Below, piece after piece: positions 18,130 to 39,956 of a stretch of 41,324 bases of DNA. The notes beneath the pieces were generated by a model that worked only from the letters and a program-made list of their open reading frames with translations, did no database searches and was not told where the DNA came from. Made by a program: the position numbers and the translations under genes. The number at the start of each line of letters is the position of its first letter. Position 1 is the first letter of the stretch. Source of the stretch: a virus (Duplodnaviria; Heunggongvirae; Uroviricota; Caudoviricetes); IMG/VR virus record IMGVR_UViG_2671180439_000007, positions 1 through 41,324 of that record, one strand, 5' to 3'.

Positions 18130-20262
18130 TTATTGCGGCAGGAGTTTAGAAATGTTCTTACGCTTAACAGGAGCCATAGCCTCATCCACGATGGCACCCG
18201 GTAATTCGTAATTGATTTTTTCTTCTGGCTCGGCTGGCGCCGGCAGGAACTTATCGGGATCGGCCTGAAGGTTAGCGGCCCGAACATTGAGTTTTAATCC
18301 CATATGTTTCAGCCCACACAACGCGGCATAGCTGTAAACGAGGCAGTCGAGTGCTTCGTTCGCCCGTCCGGGGATAGGCTCCCAGACACTGAATCGCTGA
18401 CCGGCCACCACTTTATAAACCAGTCGCTCGGCCAGCAGCTGGTTGAAATATCCGAGATCACGATCATCCGGGAAGTGCATATAGCCCGCACCGGCAGTAC
18501 CTAAAGCTGGCGGTTCAAGATGCAGACGACCACGGATAACATCTTTCGCAGAGTTCACGCCAAGTATAATTGGCCTGAAGCTGGCTTTACTTTTCGATGT
18601 CGGTCGCTTGGTTGGCCAGACGGGGTTGCGTTTCCCACCCTGCGCAGATTCGCCCTTGATAGCCCAGACGCGGCGCCCAAGGCGATCTTTGCAGAACTCA
18701 TAAACCTTTTGCGTGTGGTGACCGCCGGAGTCCATACATGCAGCCAGAATATTCAGCCCTCGCCCGTCGCCGCGTCGCCATATCTGTTTCAGGTACGCAT
18801 CGAGGCGCTTCCAGGGTTCCTCAGTCTCCAGATCGCCATAAATGACGTCATGCGCAACTGACCACGATTCCTCGTCCCGCCCCCAGCCAGTGATCGTGAT
18901 TTCGAATCGGTCATCCTGGGTATCGACGCCCGCAGTTAACAATGCCACGCCATCAGGAACGACGGCCGGGAAGACTTCACGGCGCGCCAGCAGGACATCA
19001 ACCGGGAGCTGTTTCCCGTGGTTAGGCCGGTGCGGCAACCCCATCTGGGTGTTCCACCAGGCCTGCTCCTTATCCGGATCCCCTTTCGCATCGAGGTATT
19101 TCTTTGCAATGTCCGATGGCTTGTCTTTTTGCCAGGGACTGAAGAGTTTTGACGCCTGGTACCCGGCGTGGTGATTATCCAGTGCCTCGGCCCCGCAGTC
19201 CGGGCAAATCGCCCGGTATACGGCATGCCGTTCCGACTCTGACCAGCGCCAGACGGCATCAACACTGCCCTCGTCTCCTTCATGCCATTTCTGGTCGTAT
19301 TCCATTAATGGTGAATGGCGGGAACCACAACATTCAAACGGTTTGGTCTGATGCCAGCGGATTGTCTGTAATGCCCGCAGACGCTCACCCTCTGACCAGC
19401 CAGCACCACAACATTCACAATGGATCATGGCCGCTTTGGTCAGGTGCTTATCACCTTCTTTTGGCCATTGAACATGTTTGAAGAAATCAAGGAACTGTCG
19501 GTGCCCGCAATGGGGGCAAACTACAGAGGCCCGCCGCTGATCTGAATCTTCGTAACTGTCAGCAATCCGGCTTTCATCTTCGACCGTCGGCGAGCAAGCC
19601 CGCACAGACAGCCAGTTAAGGCCAAATGTGGCGGTTCGCTCTTCCGCCAGAGCAATGGGATCGCCCTCGCGGGTAATCGGGTATTTATCCACCTCATCTG
19701 CCAGCAGAACACGGATCGGACGGCGCGCAAGGTTATCTGGACTACCGGCGCCGGCCAGCGCCAGAAATCCGCCGGTGAAAGCTTTATACAGAATGGTTTC
19801 TTTTGAACTCTTCTGCTTTGAGTCACCTATGATGTTACGCAGAACTGGCGTTACCCTAACCATCGGGCTGATGCGTTCTTTGGAAAACTGCTCAGCGGCC
19901 TCTTCCTTCGGCTGCAGGAGCAAAATCGGACATGGGTCGAGGTGCGCAAAATAACCAAACAGGTTTTCCAGCAGCGCGGTTTTCATTAACTGGGTACAGC
20001 ACATCACGGTGATAATGTGAACGCCCGATTCCGTCGCGGCCAGCATAGGACCGCGGGCAATTTCAACCGTTGATGTTTCCCAGTTCCCGGAGGTACTGCC
20101 AGCTTCTTTCGCCAGCTTCCGGTAGTCATCGGCCCATTGCGGGACGCTGATCCGCGGCGGCGGTGTCCACCCTTTCCGGACACTCAGTTGAAGACGCTCA
20201 ATCTTCCGCTGGGTTAAACTCTGGTTCTCCGAGGACTGAGATATGTTTGTGGACATGTTCAA
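18130..20262 (-). CDS. Terminase large subunit (GpA family)
   Basis: 710 aa; CPHCG zinc-ribbon region and C-terminal NEALDC motif as in lambda A. Confidence 0.9.
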   Translation of the reverse strand: MNMSTNISQSSENQSLTQRKIERLQLSVRKGWTPPPRISVPQWADDYRKLAKEAGSTSGNWETSTVEIARGPMLAATESGVHIITVMCCTQLMKTALLENLFGYFAHLDPCPILLLQPKEEAAEQFSKERISPMVRVTPVLRNIIGDSKQKSSKETILYKAFTGGFLALAGAGSPDNLARRPIRVLLADEVDKYPITREGDPIALAEERTATFGLNWLSVRACSPTVEDESRIADSYEDSDQRRASVVCPHCGHRQFLDFFKHVQWPKEGDKHLTKAAMIHCECCGAGWSEGERLRALQTIRWHQTKPFECCGSRHSPLMEYDQKWHEGDEGSVDAVWRWSESERHAVYRAICPDCGAEALDNHHAGYQASKLFSPWQKDKPSDIAKKYLDAKGDPDKEQAWWNTQMGLPHRPNHGKQLPVDVLLARREVFPAVVPDGVALLTAGVDTQDDRFEITITGWGRDEESWSVAHDVIYGDLETEEPWKRLDAYLKQIWRRGDGRGLNILAACMDSGGHHTQKVYEFCKDRLGRRVWAIKGESAQGGKRNPVWPTKRPTSKSKASFRPIILGVNSAKDVIRGRLHLEPPALGTAGAGYMHFPDDRDLGYFNQLLAERLVYKVVAGQRFSVWEPIPGRANEALDCLVYSYAALCGLKHMGLKLNVRAANLQADPDKFLPAPAEPEEKINYELPGAIVDEAMAPVKRKNISKLLPQ

Positions 20263-20761
20263 TCAGCACCTCTGTCATCCTGTCCGCCGGCACATTCAGA
20301 TCGGCGGCTATCAGCGGTGCCACGCGTGAAGGCCAGTTCAGCCAGGCATCACGCTGCTGGCGAAAGGCGTTAAACAGAACCTCCTCGGCGATGGCCAATT
20401 CAATTGTCTGGCCGCTGTCTTTTTCATACTGGAGCTTTGCCTGCAGGGCCATGTAATTTTCACGGATCCGCGCGGCCTCTTCCCTGGAAAGGGCTGCACC
20501 TTCTGTAAGCATTATCTGGCGAACGGTTTCATCAATTTCATCGTCGCTATCATTCCGGGGTGCTGGGGCTTTTTTCTTCTTCGCGTTTGATGCCCGCGGA
20601 TCTTTTCCATCACGGTTTTTCTTCAGCGCGGCATCGCTCGCCTCAACATCAATCAGGTCGCCATCCATGACGATAAACCGACCAGCCTTGATCCATCGGC
20701 CAATAGTCTTGCGATCGACGCCTGAATGTTGCGCGTACTGACTCTGGTTCATCGTGGTCAT
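20198..20761 (-). CDS. Terminase small subunit (Nu1-like)
   Basis: 187 aa with N-terminal HTH; overlaps terminase large start; directly downstream of a repeat array. Confidence 0.7.
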   Translation of the reverse strand: MTTMNQSQYAQHSGVDRKTIGRWIKAGRFIVMDGDLIDVEASDAALKKNRDGKDPRASNAKKKKAPAPRNDSDDEIDETVRQIMLTEGAALSREEAARIRENYMALQAKLQYEKDSGQTIELAIAEEVLFNAFRQQRDAWLNWPSRVAPLIAADLNVPADRMTEVLIEHVHKHISVLGEPEFNPAED

Positions 20762-20908
20762 GGGACATCACCTGGGACATTTTTGGGGTGGGACATTTAC
20801 CTGGGACATTTTTTCAATGTCCCACACGAATGTCCCACTGGAATAAATGGAATAATCCGTGCTGGCTCTGGCGTGGCTGGCGATCCCTTGGGGTGGGACA
20901 TGGGACAC
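20762..20908. repeat. Array of TGGGACAT heptamer/octamer repeats (putative cosB small-terminase binding sites)
   Basis: Four direct copies (about 20762, 20774, 20790, 20803), two inverted copies (about 20817, 20830), two more direct copies (about 20895, 20902). Confidence 0.5.
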
Positions 20909-21008
20909 AAAATAAAAGTTTGTAGCTAGGAAAACACTGCGGCGCGCAATGCCCGTGCTTTACAAAAGTCTCAGGAAGGACCCAAACCCTATGGGGTAGG
21001 TATTCAGG

Positions 21009-21707
21009 TCATTTTGCCGTTCGAATCGCTTCCTCAATCGCCCTACTCAGCGCGCCGGGCATTAAGCCGGCTGCCATTGATCGTGAGCGGTTCATGTAGT
21101 CAAGCGTAGGCGTAACAGGTAGAGCATCACCAAACCTCACCAGCAGCTTAGGAGCACGCTGTTTCCGCTTTGGTCTGCGCGTACCATTCGCTGAGCGCCG
21201 GGCTCGTTTCTTTTTCGCCTTCTTCGGTTTACGCCTCTGCCAGACAGCATCAACACCATTGACCTCACCTACGAACACATTCGGCTTCGCTTTCAACTGC
21301 GACAGCTTATTTCGCGGCATGTTGCCGTATTTGTTCAGTTTGATGTTCTTTGGATTGAGCAGCGCCTGGCTGTTCAGTTTATGTTCACCACCAAATTCAA
21401 AGGGTTCGAGATATTCAGCGGCGACATCGCGCACAAAGACTTTTGCGCGGAGGTTGTTCTTTCTGGCGCCAGCAGAGCCCACTGAGTTGACGGTGAACGG
21501 CGTCGGCGATTCCAGTTTTCGCCCCAGTGCCACCTTTTGCGCTGCGGCGATATCCCTTACTACCGATGTCATGGCTTGCGCCGTGGCGAAAGGGATTTGC
21601 TTCTGCAGCTGCTTTAGCTGCCGGGATAAATCCTTAAGCGTTGACATGGTTTCCTCCAACATTATCGAGCCACCTCTGGAAGTGGCTCTGTAATGTCGAT
21701 CAGCCAA
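21009..21707 (-). CDS. Hypothetical basic protein
   Basis: 232 aa with K/R-rich tract RRKPKKAKKKRARR; start overlaps Rha-like gene stop; start codon uncertain. Confidence 0.4.
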   Translation of the reverse strand: MADRHYRATSRGGSIMLEETMSTLKDLSRQLKQLQKQIPFATAQAMTSVVRDIAAAQKVALGRKLESPTPFTVNSVGSAGARKNNLRAKVFVRDVAAEYLEPFEFGGEHKLNSQALLNPKNIKLNKYGNMPRNKLSQLKAKPNVFVGEVNGVDAVWQRRKPKKAKKKRARRSANGTRRPKRKQRAPKLLVRFGDALPVTPTLDYMNRSRSMAAGLMPGALSRAIEEAIRTAK

Positions 21708-22218
21708 TCAGCAGTTCTGGCTGCGTCACCTGCATGATGTGCTCATGCTCGAGCTCCAGAACGCGCTTCTCTTTCTTCCGCTCGTTCATCAACCGGCTGC
21801 CGATTGTGCCTTTCAGCTTTGAGCGCGTTTCTTTGATGGCGTAGCGATGCTGCAATTCTTCACCCATCGCCATGCGCCGGTTTAGCTGCTCGGCCATCCA
21901 GTTGAAGGCATTGATGTAACACTCCTTCACTGCGGCAGCTGTTTTGCCAGTGAATCCCATCACTAGCATCATGCATCCGTCGCGGGTGATGTTATACATA
22001 GGCTGAACATCGCCATTTTTATCAATGAAATCAATGGGCGCAAAATTGCGCTGGGTGAAGTCATCGGAGCATTTCAGGTTACGTATGGCACGCAAAACGT
22101 CTTTGTGTCGCTTGCCAAAGTAATCCGCCACCTTGAGTGATGTGGTGATTATCTTGTTGTCGAGGGTCGTGACCATTTCGCGGAAGTCGAAGGCCGGAAT
22201 AACTGACGGATTATTCAT
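21700..22218 (-). CDS. Rha family phage regulatory protein
   Basis: Start set at ATG 22218 (MNNPSVIP); motif KVADYFGKRHKDVLRAIRNL characteristic of Rha/antirepressor N-terminal domains. Confidence 0.6.
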   Translation of the reverse strand: MNNPSVIPAFDFREMVTTLDNKIITTSLKVADYFGKRHKDVLRAIRNLKCSDDFTQRNFAPIDFIDKNGDVQPMYNITRDGCMMLVMGFTGKTAAAVKECYINAFNWMAEQLNRRMAMGEELQHRYAIKETRSKLKGTIGSRLMNERKKEKRVLELEHEHIMQVTQPELLIG

Positions 22219-22361
22219 AGCGTCTTTACCTTTTAGAAAGTGAGCCTGTCTCACAGAAAAGCCGCCCGAGAGAGGTCGCCACCTATAACGGCATTTCTCA
22301 GGCTCACTTACTGAAAGGCTCTCGTTAATATGCGCGTGAGATGCGCATTTACTGCGGACAT

Positions 22362-23742: not shown

Positions 23743-24795
23743 TTATTTCCCCACCAGTTCACTTACCTCTTTCACCGTCTGATTAAACCGCTCTGACTCA
23801 AGTTCAACACCTAACGCCCGACGCCCCAGCGCCATTGCCGCTTTTATTGTGGAACCGGATCCCATAAAAAAATCAGCAACCAGATCACCGGGTCGACTAC
23901 TGGCATTGATTATTTGCCTGAGCATATCCGCCGGTTTCTCACACGGATGTTTACCCGGGTAGAACTGAACGGGTTTATGCATCCAGACATCGGTATAAGG
24001 CACGGAGACTGATACGGAGAAATAGCGCCGGAGAGATTTAAACTCATCCAGCAATTCAGAATATTTGCGATTCAGTGAATCATAAGATGCCACCAGCTGG
24101 TGGTGTGGTTGTTCCAGTTGTTGTTCCTGAAACTTCTCTGCCGCTATACGGGAAAACAGTGCCTGTAACTTCCGATAGTCAGCCTCATTCGGCAACTGCC
24201 ACTGACTGGCACCAAACCAGTGGGAAACCATATTTTTCTTACCTGTGGCTTCGGCAATTTGTTTTGCCGTTATACCCAGTTCGGCACGAGCATCCCTGAA
24301 ATACGATATCAGCGGTGCCATTATGTGCTGTTTGAGTTCCCTTTCTTTTGCCGCATAGCCGTCACTTTTGCCGCGATATGGCCCCTGGTAATGTTCAGCA
24401 AACAGAACGCGCTCTGTGGCAGGAAAATATGCGCGCAGACTTTCTTTATTACACCCATTCCAACGTCCGGACGGCTTCGCCCAGATGATATGGTTAAGCA
24501 CGTTGAAACGTTCACGCATCATGATCTCAATATCAGATGCCAGGCGATGCCCACAGAACAGGTAAAGGCTTCCGGCAGGTTTCAACACCCGCCAGAACTG
24601 GGCCAGACAGTGGTCCAGCCACTTAAGGTAATCTTCGTCCCCTTTCCACTGATTGTCCCAACCGTTGGGTTTCACCTTGAAGTAAGGCGGATCGGTAACA
24701 ATCAGGTCAATGGAATCATCAGGCAGGGACTGAATAAAATGCAGGCAATCAGCGTTGATTAAATCAATACTGTTTATTTTTACAGTGTTTTTCAT
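23743..24795 (-). CDS. DNA methyltransferase, beta-class amino-MTase (N6-adenine or N4-cytosine)
   Basis: 350 aa; DPPY motif (LIVTDPPYF) precedes C-terminal SAM motif FFMGSGST. Confidence 0.8.
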   Translation of the reverse strand: MKNTVKINSIDLINADCLHFIQSLPDDSIDLIVTDPPYFKVKPNGWDNQWKGDEDYLKWLDHCLAQFWRVLKPAGSLYLFCGHRLASDIEIMMRERFNVLNHIIWAKPSGRWNGCNKESLRAYFPATERVLFAEHYQGPYRGKSDGYAAKERELKQHIMAPLISYFRDARAELGITAKQIAEATGKKNMVSHWFGASQWQLPNEADYRKLQALFSRIAAEKFQEQQLEQPHHQLVASYDSLNRKYSELLDEFKSLRRYFSVSVSVPYTDVWMHKPVQFYPGKHPCEKPADMLRQIINASSRPGDLVADFFMGSGSTIKAAMALGRRALGVELESERFNQTVKEVSELVGK

Positions 24796-34538: not shown

Positions 34539-35213
34539 ATGAAAACAATCCATGACATCCGGCGGTCTAACGCCAGAAAACTGAGAGATGGTGTTGGCGG
34601 AAATTCATCCTTTGCCACCATGATTGATCGCGAGCCAACCCAAACCAGCAGGTTTATGGGGGATGGCGCTACTAAAAATATCGGTGACAGCATGGCACGG
34701 CACATCGAAAAATGTTTCGACCTGCCTGTCGGATGGCTTGATCAAGAACACCAGACAACGAACATCACAAAAAAACCTGATGTTTCAATCACTAACAAAC
34801 AAATAACGTTAGTCCCTGTCATATCATGGGTACAGGCCGGAGCATGGAAAGAAGTTGGCTATTCTGAGGTTGATTTGAGCACAGCAGAAACGTATCCCTG
34901 CCCTGTACCCTGTGGCGAAATGACTTATATCTTGCGGGTGATTGGTGATTCAATGATTGATGAGTACCGCCCTGGAGACATGATTTTTGTTGATCCCGAA
35001 GTCCCTGCCTGCCACGGTGACGACGTTATTGCATTGATGCACGATACAGGCGAAACCACCTTCAAGCGATTGATAGAAGATGGAACACAGCGTTATCTCA
35101 AAGCATTAAACCCAAACTGGCCTGAGCCTTACATTAAGATTAACGGTAATTGCTCTATAATTGGTACAGTGATTTTCTCGGGAAAACCAAGAAGATACAC
35201 AATAAAGGCCTAA
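34539..35213 (+). CDS. Prophage repressor, P22 C2 / lambda cI-like with S24 peptidase domain
   Basis: 224 aa; C-terminal VIGDSM...GDMIFVDPEV...KALNPNWPEPYIKINGNCSIIG closely parallels P22 C2 as recalled. Confidence 0.85.
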   Translation: MKTIHDIRRSNARKLRDGVGGNSSFATMIDREPTQTSRFMGDGATKNIGDSMARHIEKCFDLPVGWLDQEHQTTNITKKPDVSITNKQITLVPVISWVQAGAWKEVGYSEVDLSTAETYPCPVPCGEMTYILRVIGDSMIDEYRPGDMIFVDPEVPACHGDDVIALMHDTGETTFKRLIEDGTQRYLKALNPNWPEPYIKINGNCSIIGTVIFSGKPRRYTIKA

Positions 35214-38476: not shown

Positions 38477-38826
38477 TGGAGCCATACAGCCTCACACTCG
38501 ATGAGGCCTGTCATTTTCTCAAGATATCCAGACCGACTGCCATTAACTGGATACGCACAGGGCGTCTTCAGGCAACACGCAAAGATCCCACTAAGAATAA
38601 ATCTCCTTACCTCACAACACGACAAGCCTGCATTGCGGCTCTTCAGTCTCCGCTGCATACTGTCCAGGTGAGCGCGGGTGATGGCATAACAGAGGAAAGA
38701 AAATGTCACTCTTCCGCAGAGGTGAAATATGGTACGCCAGTTTCACATTGCCGAACGGTAAAAGATTTAAACAGTCTCTTGGAACAAAGGACAAAAGGCA
38801 GGCGACAGAACTCCATGACAAGCTAA
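38476..38826 (+). CDS. xis: Excisionase
   Basis: 116 aa; [29 protein letters not shown]; overlaps integrase start as in P22-type modules. Confidence 0.65.
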
Positions 38827-39866
38827 AGGCTGAAGCATGGCGGGTCAGCAAACTTGGTGAAATACCTGATATAACGTTCGAGGAAGCGTGTGTCAGGTGG
38901 CTTGAAGAGAAAGCACATAAAAAATCACTGGACGATGACAAAAGCCGGATCGGATTCTGGCTTCAACATTTCGCAGGAATGCAACTAAGAGACATTACTG
39001 AATCAAAAATTTATTCAGCAATGCAGAAAATGACGAACCGGCGTCATGAGGAAAACTGGAGACTCAGGGCAGAAGCATGCAGAAAAAAAGGGAAACCTGT
39101 TCCAGAATACACGCCAAAACCAGCGTCCGTTGCAACGAAGGCTACGCATCTTTCATTTATAAAGGCCCTACTAAGAGCCGCAGAGCGTGAATGGAAAATG
39201 CTGGATAAGGCACCAATTATTAAAGTGCCTCAACCAAAGAATAAACGGATCCGCTGGCTGGAGCCCCATGAAGCACAAAGGCTGATTGATGAATGTCCGG
39301 AGCCATTAAAGTCTGTTGTTGAATTTGCACTGGCAACAGGCTTAAGACGCTCGAACATCATCAACCTTGAATGGCAACAAATAGACATGCAGCGCCGGGT
39401 GGCATGGATAAACCCGGAAGAGAGTAAATCAAACCGCGCAATTGGCGTTGCGCTGAATGATACTGCATGTCGCGTTTTGAAAAAACAAATCGGGAATCAT
39501 CACCGTTGGGTATTTGTGTACAAGGAAAGCTGTACCAAACCAGACGGAACGAAAGCGCCAACAGTAAGGAAGATGCGGTATGACGCAAACACAGCCTGGA
39601 AAGCGGCGCTGAGACGGGCTGGTATTGATGATTTCAGATTTCACGACTTGAGACACACCTGGGCAAGTTGGCTGGTTCAAGCCGGAGTCCCGTTGTCAGT
39701 GTTACAGGAAATGGGAGGCTGGGAGTCTATCGAAATGGTTCGTCGATATGCTCACCTTGCACCTAATCACCTTACCGAACACGCACGGCAAATAGACTCG
39801 ATCCTGAACCCATCGGTCCCAAATTTGTCCCAGTCAAAAAATAAGGAAGGTACTAATGATGTGTAA
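38703..39866 (+). CDS. int: Tyrosine integrase, P22 Int family
   Basis: 387 aa; N-terminus [46 protein letters not shown] matches recalled P22 Int; C-terminal [10 protein letters not shown]...RYAHL catalytic region; ends 15 bp from tRNA 3' end. Confidence 0.9.
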
Positions 39867-39880
39867 CTTATTGATTTTAA

Positions 39881-39956
39881 TGGTGCCGATAATAGGAGTC
39901 GAACCTACGACCTTCGCATTACGAATGCGCTGCTCTACCAACTGAGCTATATCGGC
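39881..39956 (-). tRNA. thrW: tRNA-Thr (CGU anticodon)
   Basis: Reverse complement reads GCCGATATAGCTCAGTTGGTAGAGCAGCGCATTCGTAATGCGAAGGTCGTAGGTTCGACTCCTATTATCGGCACCA; cloverleaf with CGT anticodon and CCA end. Confidence 0.9.

Follow-up and report, generated by a model that had tools for sequence, protein, structure and literature searches.

The window analysed here is a stretch of 41,324 nucleotides of a virus of the Caudoviricetes (IMG/VR record IMGVR_UViG_2671180439_000007), and this report deals with its putative packaging site, located between a gene of PHROG 1924 and terS, the gene of the small terminase subunit (TerS). The genes around the site are transcribed from the minus strand in the order holin, lysozyme and Rz, a Rha-like gene, the PHROG 1924 gene, an intergenic region, terS, the gene of the large terminase subunit (TerL), gpW, and portal. 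TerS, annotated as 'hypothetical' in the sources, matches PHROG 57 'terminase small subunit' over residues 1–186 (E = 1.2e-34). The intergenic region contains a dense array of short repeats and, upstream of it, a stretch that is nearly identical to the mapped cohesive ends of a known phage.

To describe the array, we counted exact copies of the heptamer TGGGACA, which reads TGTCCCA on the coding strand of terS. Ten copies occur in the window on both strands, eight of them within 20761–20907 and two in the remaining 41 kb, in agreement with the initial annotation, which had reported eight copies of a 7–8-bp motif in both orientations within about 150 bp. Six of the eight run on the plus strand, starting at 20761, 20773, 20789, 20802, 20894, and 20901, and two lie on the minus strand at 20818–20824 and 20831–20837. 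Seven copies extend to TGGGACAT, while the remaining one reads TGGGACAC. Shuffled sequences contain about 5 copies per window, equal to 0.018 per 147 bp, and chance clustering of the repeats was rejected against this expectation (Poisson P(≥8) ~2.5e-19). An independent repeat finder returned the same units. It additionally detected a 23-nt imperfect palindrome at 20788–20838 (83% complementary, 5-nt centre) that includes two direct and two inverted copies of TGGGACA; this suggests that TerS dimers might bind symmetrically across the boundary between the groups termed R2-like and R1-like below.

The array runs directly into the start of terS. Specifically, the last base of the copy at 20761–20768 is also part of the ATG (20761–20759), and the Shine-Dalgarno sequence AGGTGA (20768–20773) is flanked and overlapped by the two terS-proximal copies, as had been claimed for the first copy from inspection of the sequence. 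Two in-frame ATGs are present, at 20761 and 20752; the former follows the good Shine-Dalgarno sequence and gives an MTTM start that recurs in other subfamilies, and the latter aligns with the annotated TerS start of Serratia phage vB_SspM_BZS1 (BZS1) and Citrobacter phage phiNP. Since the last two copies bracket the Shine-Dalgarno sequence and abut the ATG, the repeats might primarily form an operator, through which a regulator, or TerS as a repressor, would control the terminase operon, with packaging recognition located elsewhere. We consider this improbable, and regard the TGGGACA repeats as most likely docking sites for the small terminase.

The lead to the cutting site came from a blastn search against the phage collection, in which a single 71-bp match was found just upstream of terS in phiNP; megablast and blastn of the region returned almost nothing else from this collection, and tblastn with TerS gave distant matches only. 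The neighbour genes of phiNP are annotated by reference to BZS1, whose record is linear and labels bases 1–12 as 'cosL'. The 5′ cohesive ends of BZS1, with the overhang GCATTGCGCGCC, were mapped from virion reads with PhageTerm, and a PCR product spanning the prophage cos, compared with the virion ends, confirmed them (PMC7556043). The minus strand of the window at 20914–20984 matches, at nearly every base, the sequence formed by joining the right end of BZS1 to its left end, the junction being tgggtccttccctgcacttttgtaaagcacgg followed by GCATTGCGCGCCgcg in BZS1 and tgggtccttcctgagacttttgtaaagcacgg followed by GCATTGCGCGCCgcag in the window. Because the window matches this experimentally mapped junction, we place cosN at 20941–20952 and predict, by identity to BZS1, a 12-nt 5′ overhang. 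This puts the predicted cutting site some 35 bp upstream of the repeats, within the interval 20909–21008 where the initial annotation had expected the nick.

Further upstream, the heptamer GGGTCCT, a candidate packaging-termination element, is embedded in a conserved block (Table 1). The lambda right end carries the same heptamer at 48473–48479, 23 nt before its nick, which we take to be the 7-bp lambda cosQ; the two phages have unrelated cohesive ends. Wieczorek and Feiss are said to have defined this 7-bp element in 2001. Both the position (about 20–30 bp upstream of cosN) and the conservation of the window's heptamer agree with its predicted function as a cosQ-type element; cosQ has been described as a highly conserved 7-bp element (PMC4669245). 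On the other side of cosN, 20-nt windows from 20930 and from 20920 of the spacer contain 70% A+T, and the pattern CTAGCTA..AACTTTT..ATTT is common to the window, BZS1, and phiNP. In lambda, the AT-rich element I2 spans bp 18–50 (PMC4856287).

Pac phages such as SPP1 also possess more than one TerS site flanking a cut (PMC4669245), so that the array could in principle be a pac-type headful site, or DNA could be packaged by another route with the cosN homology as a relic. However, TerL belongs to the gpA family of lambda, many genera have kept the cosQ heptamer and the exact cosN 17-mer, an argument for selection, and the homologous site of BZS1, a relative with literature-mapped ends, gives defined 12-nt cohesive ends. 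A headful or other route is therefore very unlikely in our view, and cosN would be nicked by the gpA-family TerL, as expected of a lambda-type cos site.

Next, we compared the repeat groups with the R sites of lambda, numbering positions from the first overhang base and scoring the lambda core as CGTTTCC. In a complex cosB, three R sites are present, and R2 has the reverse orientation of R3 and R1 (PMC4669245). The window contains three groups in the same arrangement (Table 1), and the position of the R3-like group equals that of R3 in lambda and N15, which lies at bp 48–65 (PMC9026076) and whose distance from cosN is critical (PMC4669245, PMC9026076). Because positions and orientations match those of lambda R3, inverted R2, and R1, the array is predicted to be a complex cosB whose R elements each consist of a few clustered copies of the 7–8-bp core (A)TGTCCCA. 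The idea of small-terminase R sites in a putative cosB, proposed initially from the repeats and their place before terS, is thus borne out by lambda-like positions and orientations, and also by motif conservation and by covariation with the N-terminal domain (N-domain) of TerS. Conservation in the spacer that separates the R3-like from the R2-like group is limited to an A/T-rich block containing two direct copies of TGGAATAA at 9-bp spacing (20839–20855; family D8 of the repeat finder), which may be a candidate I1-like site for a bending protein. Together, we read positions 20761–20983 of the minus strand as a lambda-type cos site of an integrated prophage, composed of cosQ, cosN, an A/T-rich spacer, and a complex cosB, with a probability of about 85%.

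The conservation of the region was analysed in 80 close relatives, whose TerS proteins are 87–99% identical. The cosN 12-mer is kept in 78 of the 80, and nearly all of them keep every repeat copy. Among 49 distinct relatives, the mean minor-allele fraction between cosN and the ATG is 0.010 for motif columns versus 0.140 for non-motif columns (Mann-Whitney P = 4e-8). In the same set, conserved sequence is seen at the GGGTCCTTCC block, at cosN, and in the repeat groups, and variable sequence upstream of GGGTCC and in the 36-bp G+C-rich spacer. One locus with the same cos and a TerS 88% identical, in a prophage of enterobacterial type, lies on a 226-kb contig whose label is that of a Gram-positive bacterium, Vagococcus sp. 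WN89Y (NZ_JBQPOM010000071.1); this assembly is probably mislabelled or contaminated.

More distant loci reveal how the motif changes. When public collections of viral sequences and genomes were scanned for the cosN 17-mer, about 147 true cos loci were obtained. The genome scan additionally demanded GGGTCC 21–22 nt upstream of the exact 17-mer and returned 58 species-representative loci from Enterobacterales, Burkholderiales, Neisseriales, and Xanthomonadales. The diversity came from the 17-mer scan; a second viral-contig scan with a three-sequence alignment found the same close relatives as the first scan. The cosQ-cosN module is constant across the ~147 loci, with a cosQ-like block in all of them, and in each related locus the motif proper to it forms a tandem pair that starts at +44 to +48. 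Seven types of motif are paired with different N-terminal sequences of TerS: TGTCCCA with GV[DN]RKTI..W, GGTAACA with GVSRKTVT.W, TGTTCGC with CSDTLVRRA, TGTCCGC with CDEKQVRRA, GGTTTCA with GVSHTAV.KW, GGTTAAC with GVSKPAVTKW, and TTGACAC/TTCACAC with GMSR..[LF]Y.W. Natural domain swaps were found in both directions. At 6 loci, the C-terminal part of TerS is 79–81% identical to that of the window and the N-domain only ~50% identical, and the motif is GGTAACA; at about 8 loci, the N-domain is 64–71% identical and the C-terminus unrelated, and the motif is TGGGACA. The cosB motif follows the winged helix-turn-helix module at the N-terminus of TerS, independently of the C-terminal module.

Different specificities also meet within one host. 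Raoultella ornithinolytica NBRC 105727 (L286/L313) and Ewingella americana E4 (L311/L334) each contain two prophages that have cosQ-cosN in common but differ in cosB motif and TerS N-domain, which fits packaging-specificity divergence between phages that share a host. On the 116-kb plasmid pSP2 of Rouxiella badensis (CP114059.1), three cosQ-cosN stretches (L316, L317, and L321), separate or overlapping, may represent several cos modules on one replicon. Short motifs iterated in both orientations resemble the iterons of origins and centromeres as well, and the repeats might accordingly serve replication or partition, or bind a host factor, unrelated to packaging. The array is located, however, between the lysis/late genes and terS, outside the replication module, and its motif follows the N-domain of TerS; the motif also differs between prophages of the same host genome, namely in the two pairs above, which makes a host factor unlikely. 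We give these possibilities hardly any weight compared with a role of the repeats in TerS-dependent packaging.

In the loci of the short form (BZS1, L002/L003; phiNP, L001; and 26 others), GGTAACA continues inside terS, in the linker-coding part at codons ~55–80, as Gly-Asn repeats. The Gly-Asn dipeptides of short-form terS are encoded by GGTAAC in 134 of 144 cases with A as the next base in 133 of 144, while GGT makes up 32% of the other Gly codons, although the sequences are related and the counts non-independent. This bias points to selection at the DNA level for intragenic TerS sites, comparable to rR2 of N15. A far-reaching joint reading would combine all these features: cosQ-cosN as a fixed chassis across four orders, with at least seven swapped cassettes of cosB motif and TerS winged helix-turn-helix; avoidance of cross-packaging between co-resident prophages with identical ends; in the window, an array over the terS ribosome-binding site that acts as a TerS-dependent translational brake; and, in the short form, obligatory GGTAAC (Gly-Asn) codon pairs in the TerS linker, through which the same DNA would be both protein code and packaging signal. 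As a whole, this combination is speculative and rather doubtful.

We then built an AlphaFold model of TerS. It shows a beta-helix-helix-beta-beta-helix N-domain (residues 1–50, predicted local distance difference test score (pLDDT) 71–81), a disordered linker, and a helical C-terminal part. Foldseek ranks MerR-like and excisionase winged helix-turn-helix proteins, including BldC, first to fifth for the N-domain. On the basis of this model, the N-domain is predicted to be a winged helix-turn-helix of the Nu1 DNA-binding-domain fold. The term 'Nu1-like' used for this gene in the initial annotation holds for fold and gene position, but not for membership of the Pfam Nu1 family. The same Foldseek matches speak in favour of the operator explanation, as they include MerR-like regulators and excisionases, and BldC binds direct-repeat arrays; we nevertheless keep TerS docking for packaging as the preferred function of the repeats.

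Several observations weigh against a lambda-type cos site with TerS as its reader. TerS has no Pfam match above threshold, Phage_Nu1 included, its sole match being DUF4604 below the cut-off (E = 0.0099); phmmer of TerS against the PDB found nothing significant, Nu1 chains included; and BLASTP against lambda Nu1 gave a weak match of 31 residues (E = 0.038). The TerS model, derived from 26 homologues, is of moderate confidence (mean pLDDT 69), and its Foldseek E-values all exceed 0.3. A scan with the consensus of integration host factor (IHF) found no convincing site between the R3-like and R2-like groups: the best match to WATCAANNNNTTR, at 20842–20854, has 2 mismatches, and such matches occur at ~9 per kb in the window, no better than background. 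No more than 200 bp separate the motif from the segment encoding the N-domain, so that linkage instead of function could account for part of their joint inheritance. Additionally, TerS binding and the prophage's own virion ends are both things that we infer, and the prophage could be defective.

By analogy with lambda, packaging at this site would proceed as follows. The winged helix-turn-helix domains of TerS would bind the repeats, and the DNA that separates the R3-like from the R2-like group would bend, perhaps with the aid of a bending protein of the host. TerS, once bound, would position the gpA-family TerL, which would introduce nicks 12 bp apart at cosN. The terminase would then stay on the cosB end, dock on the portal, and translocate DNA until the next cosQ-cosN is reached. 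Because the last copies cover the ribosome-binding site of terS, TerS binding may, more speculatively, damp its own translation.

The gene neighbourhood is that of a temperate phage (Table 1). With a contractile sheath, an S24 repressor, an integrase, and head/packaging genes of lambda type, the window is an integrated temperate prophage with a myovirus tail. The portal belongs to the lambda family, and a gene for a gpE-type capsid protein is found elsewhere in the window; the TerL gene lies directly downstream of terS and overlaps its stop codon. The integrase gene and the adjoining tRNA-Thr(CGT) gene mark one prophage end and its probable att site. A promoter/terminator scan of the region found no sigma-70-like promoter, and its two terminator-like matches, both on the non-coding plus strand, are within chance expectation; a cos region free of promoters would fit read-through late transcription, as in lambda. 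The PHROG 1924 gene encodes a very basic stretch (KPKKAKKKRARR) and varies strongly among relatives at its 3′ end. Situated directly upstream of cos and apart from the other tail genes, it lies at the extreme right of the virion chromosome.

Table 1 Features of the predicted cos site and of the surrounding prophage genes; offsets (+) count from the first overhang base
Feature	Coordinates	Strand	Remarks
Conserved block GGGTCCTTCC containing the cosQ-like heptamer	20974–20983	−	nearly invariant in 49 relatives
cosQ-like heptamer GGGTCCT, candidate packaging-termination element	20977–20983	−	24 nt before nick
cosN core CGG/GCATTGCGCGCC/GC	20939–20955	−	identical to junction of mapped BZS1 ends
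Predicted 12-nt 5′ cohesive end GCATTGCGCGCC	20941–20952	−	identity with BZS1 overhang
Predicted nick, minus strand	20953/20952	−	
Predicted nick, plus strand	20941/20940	+	
Spacer from cosN to first repeats, distal half A/T-rich CTAGCTACAAACTTTTATTTT	20909–20940	−	position equivalent to lambda I2
R3-like: two overlapping direct copies GTGTCCCATGTCCCA	20894–20908	−	+46, +53; lambda R3 core +53, direct
Variable G+C-rich spacer, R3-like to R2-like, 36 bp	20858–20893	−	least conserved part of cos region; mean minor-allele fraction 0.24
Conserved A/T-rich block adjoining inverted pair	20838–20857	−	12 of 20 columns invariant
R2-like: two inverted copies	20817–20837	+	+116, +129; lambda R2 core +114, inverted
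R1-like: four direct copies, duplicated 29-bp unit (also returned by repeat finder)	20761–20809	−	+145, +158, +174, +186; lambda R1 +155
terS ATG			+192; lambda Nu1 ATG +191
Intergenic region, 247 bp	20762–21008		between PHROG 1924 gene and terS
Small terminase (TerS), 187 aa	20198–20761	−	winged helix-turn-helix ~1–50 (predicted), disordered basic/acidic linker 52–71, helical C-terminal part
Large terminase (TerL), lambda gpA family	18130–20262	−	Pfam GpA_ATPase 5.1e-66, GpA_nuclease 2.2e-81
PHROG 1924 'minor tail protein' gene, 232 aa	21009–21707	−	PHROG E 1.6e-59; without Pfam family
Rha-like regulator gene	21700–22254	−	neighbour gene upstream of cos
N6/N4 DNA methylase	23743–24795		
S24 repressor	34539–35213		
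Tyrosine integrase	38703–39956		Pfam Phage_integrase 3.5e-48; adjoins tRNA-Thr(CGT)

The site is of lambda type in every architectural respect tested, which confirms a well-understood system rather than challenging it, and leaves the current picture of lambda-type packaging unchanged. The cohesive end is already published for BZS1, and the cosB is predicted to carry a new packaging specificity; the literature searched contained no account of the cosB in this lineage. These assignments fix the predicted virion chromosome ends and packaging signal of widespread prophages of Klebsiella/Raoultella/Enterobacter type, in which TerS is annotated only as 'hypothetical protein'. The natural series of cosB/TerS N-domain pairs on a constant cosQ-cosN offers ready material for work on the encoding and exchange of packaging specificity, and is useful for predicting cross-packaging of co-resident prophages or satellites and for the design of cosmid or transduction vectors for these hosts.

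Among named systems, lambda shares with the window the order cosQ, cosN, A/T-rich spacer, cosB, terS, and terL, the heptamer GGGTCCT at nearly the same distance before the nick (23 nt in lambda, 24 nt in the window), and a 12-nt 5′ overhang, which in the window is predicted from BZS1. The two also have in common the direct-inverted-direct succession of cores at near-equal distances, a gpA-family TerL, and the Nu1 DNA-binding-domain fold, predicted for the window's TerS. In contrast, the lambda cohesive end GGGCGGCGACCT is unrelated to GCATTGCGCGCC, each lambda R element is one site of ~16 bp whereas the window has clusters of 2, 2, and 4 copies of a 7–8-bp core, no recognisable IHF site was found here, and the window's TerS is only marginally similar to Nu1.

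BZS1 (MT843275) and phiNP (OR565852) resemble the window in the cosQ-like block, the cosN 17-mer, the homologous spacer, and the lambda-like head genes; their TerS proteins are homologous with 26–29% identity, and BZS1 is a myovirus like the window prophage. They differ in the motif GGTAACA, three copies of which abut a terS ATG only 74 nt from cosN, and in further copies inside terS, one inverted at +217 and direct ones from +245 to +308. Their layout is thus simple and short, like that of N15, while that of the window is complex, long, and entirely intergenic. Complex (lambda, Monarch) and simple (N15) cosB are known within one terminase lineage (Feiss et al. 2015, PMC4669245), the simple form consisting of a proximal site and an inverted accessory site within terS, ~200 bp away (PMC4669245). 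This dichotomy is mirrored by the BZS1 type versus the window type, although cosN, motifs, and TerS sequences differ from those of N15 and Monarch, and the dichotomy here covers at least seven specificity classes. Finally, BldC, MerR-like proteins, and excisionases share with the N-domain a small winged helix-turn-helix fold and a short-repeat array as target, both predicted for the window. Proteins of the BldC type act as regulators or recombination directionality factors, whereas the window's domain is fused to a terminase oligomerisation and TerL-binding part and is encoded in a packaging operon.
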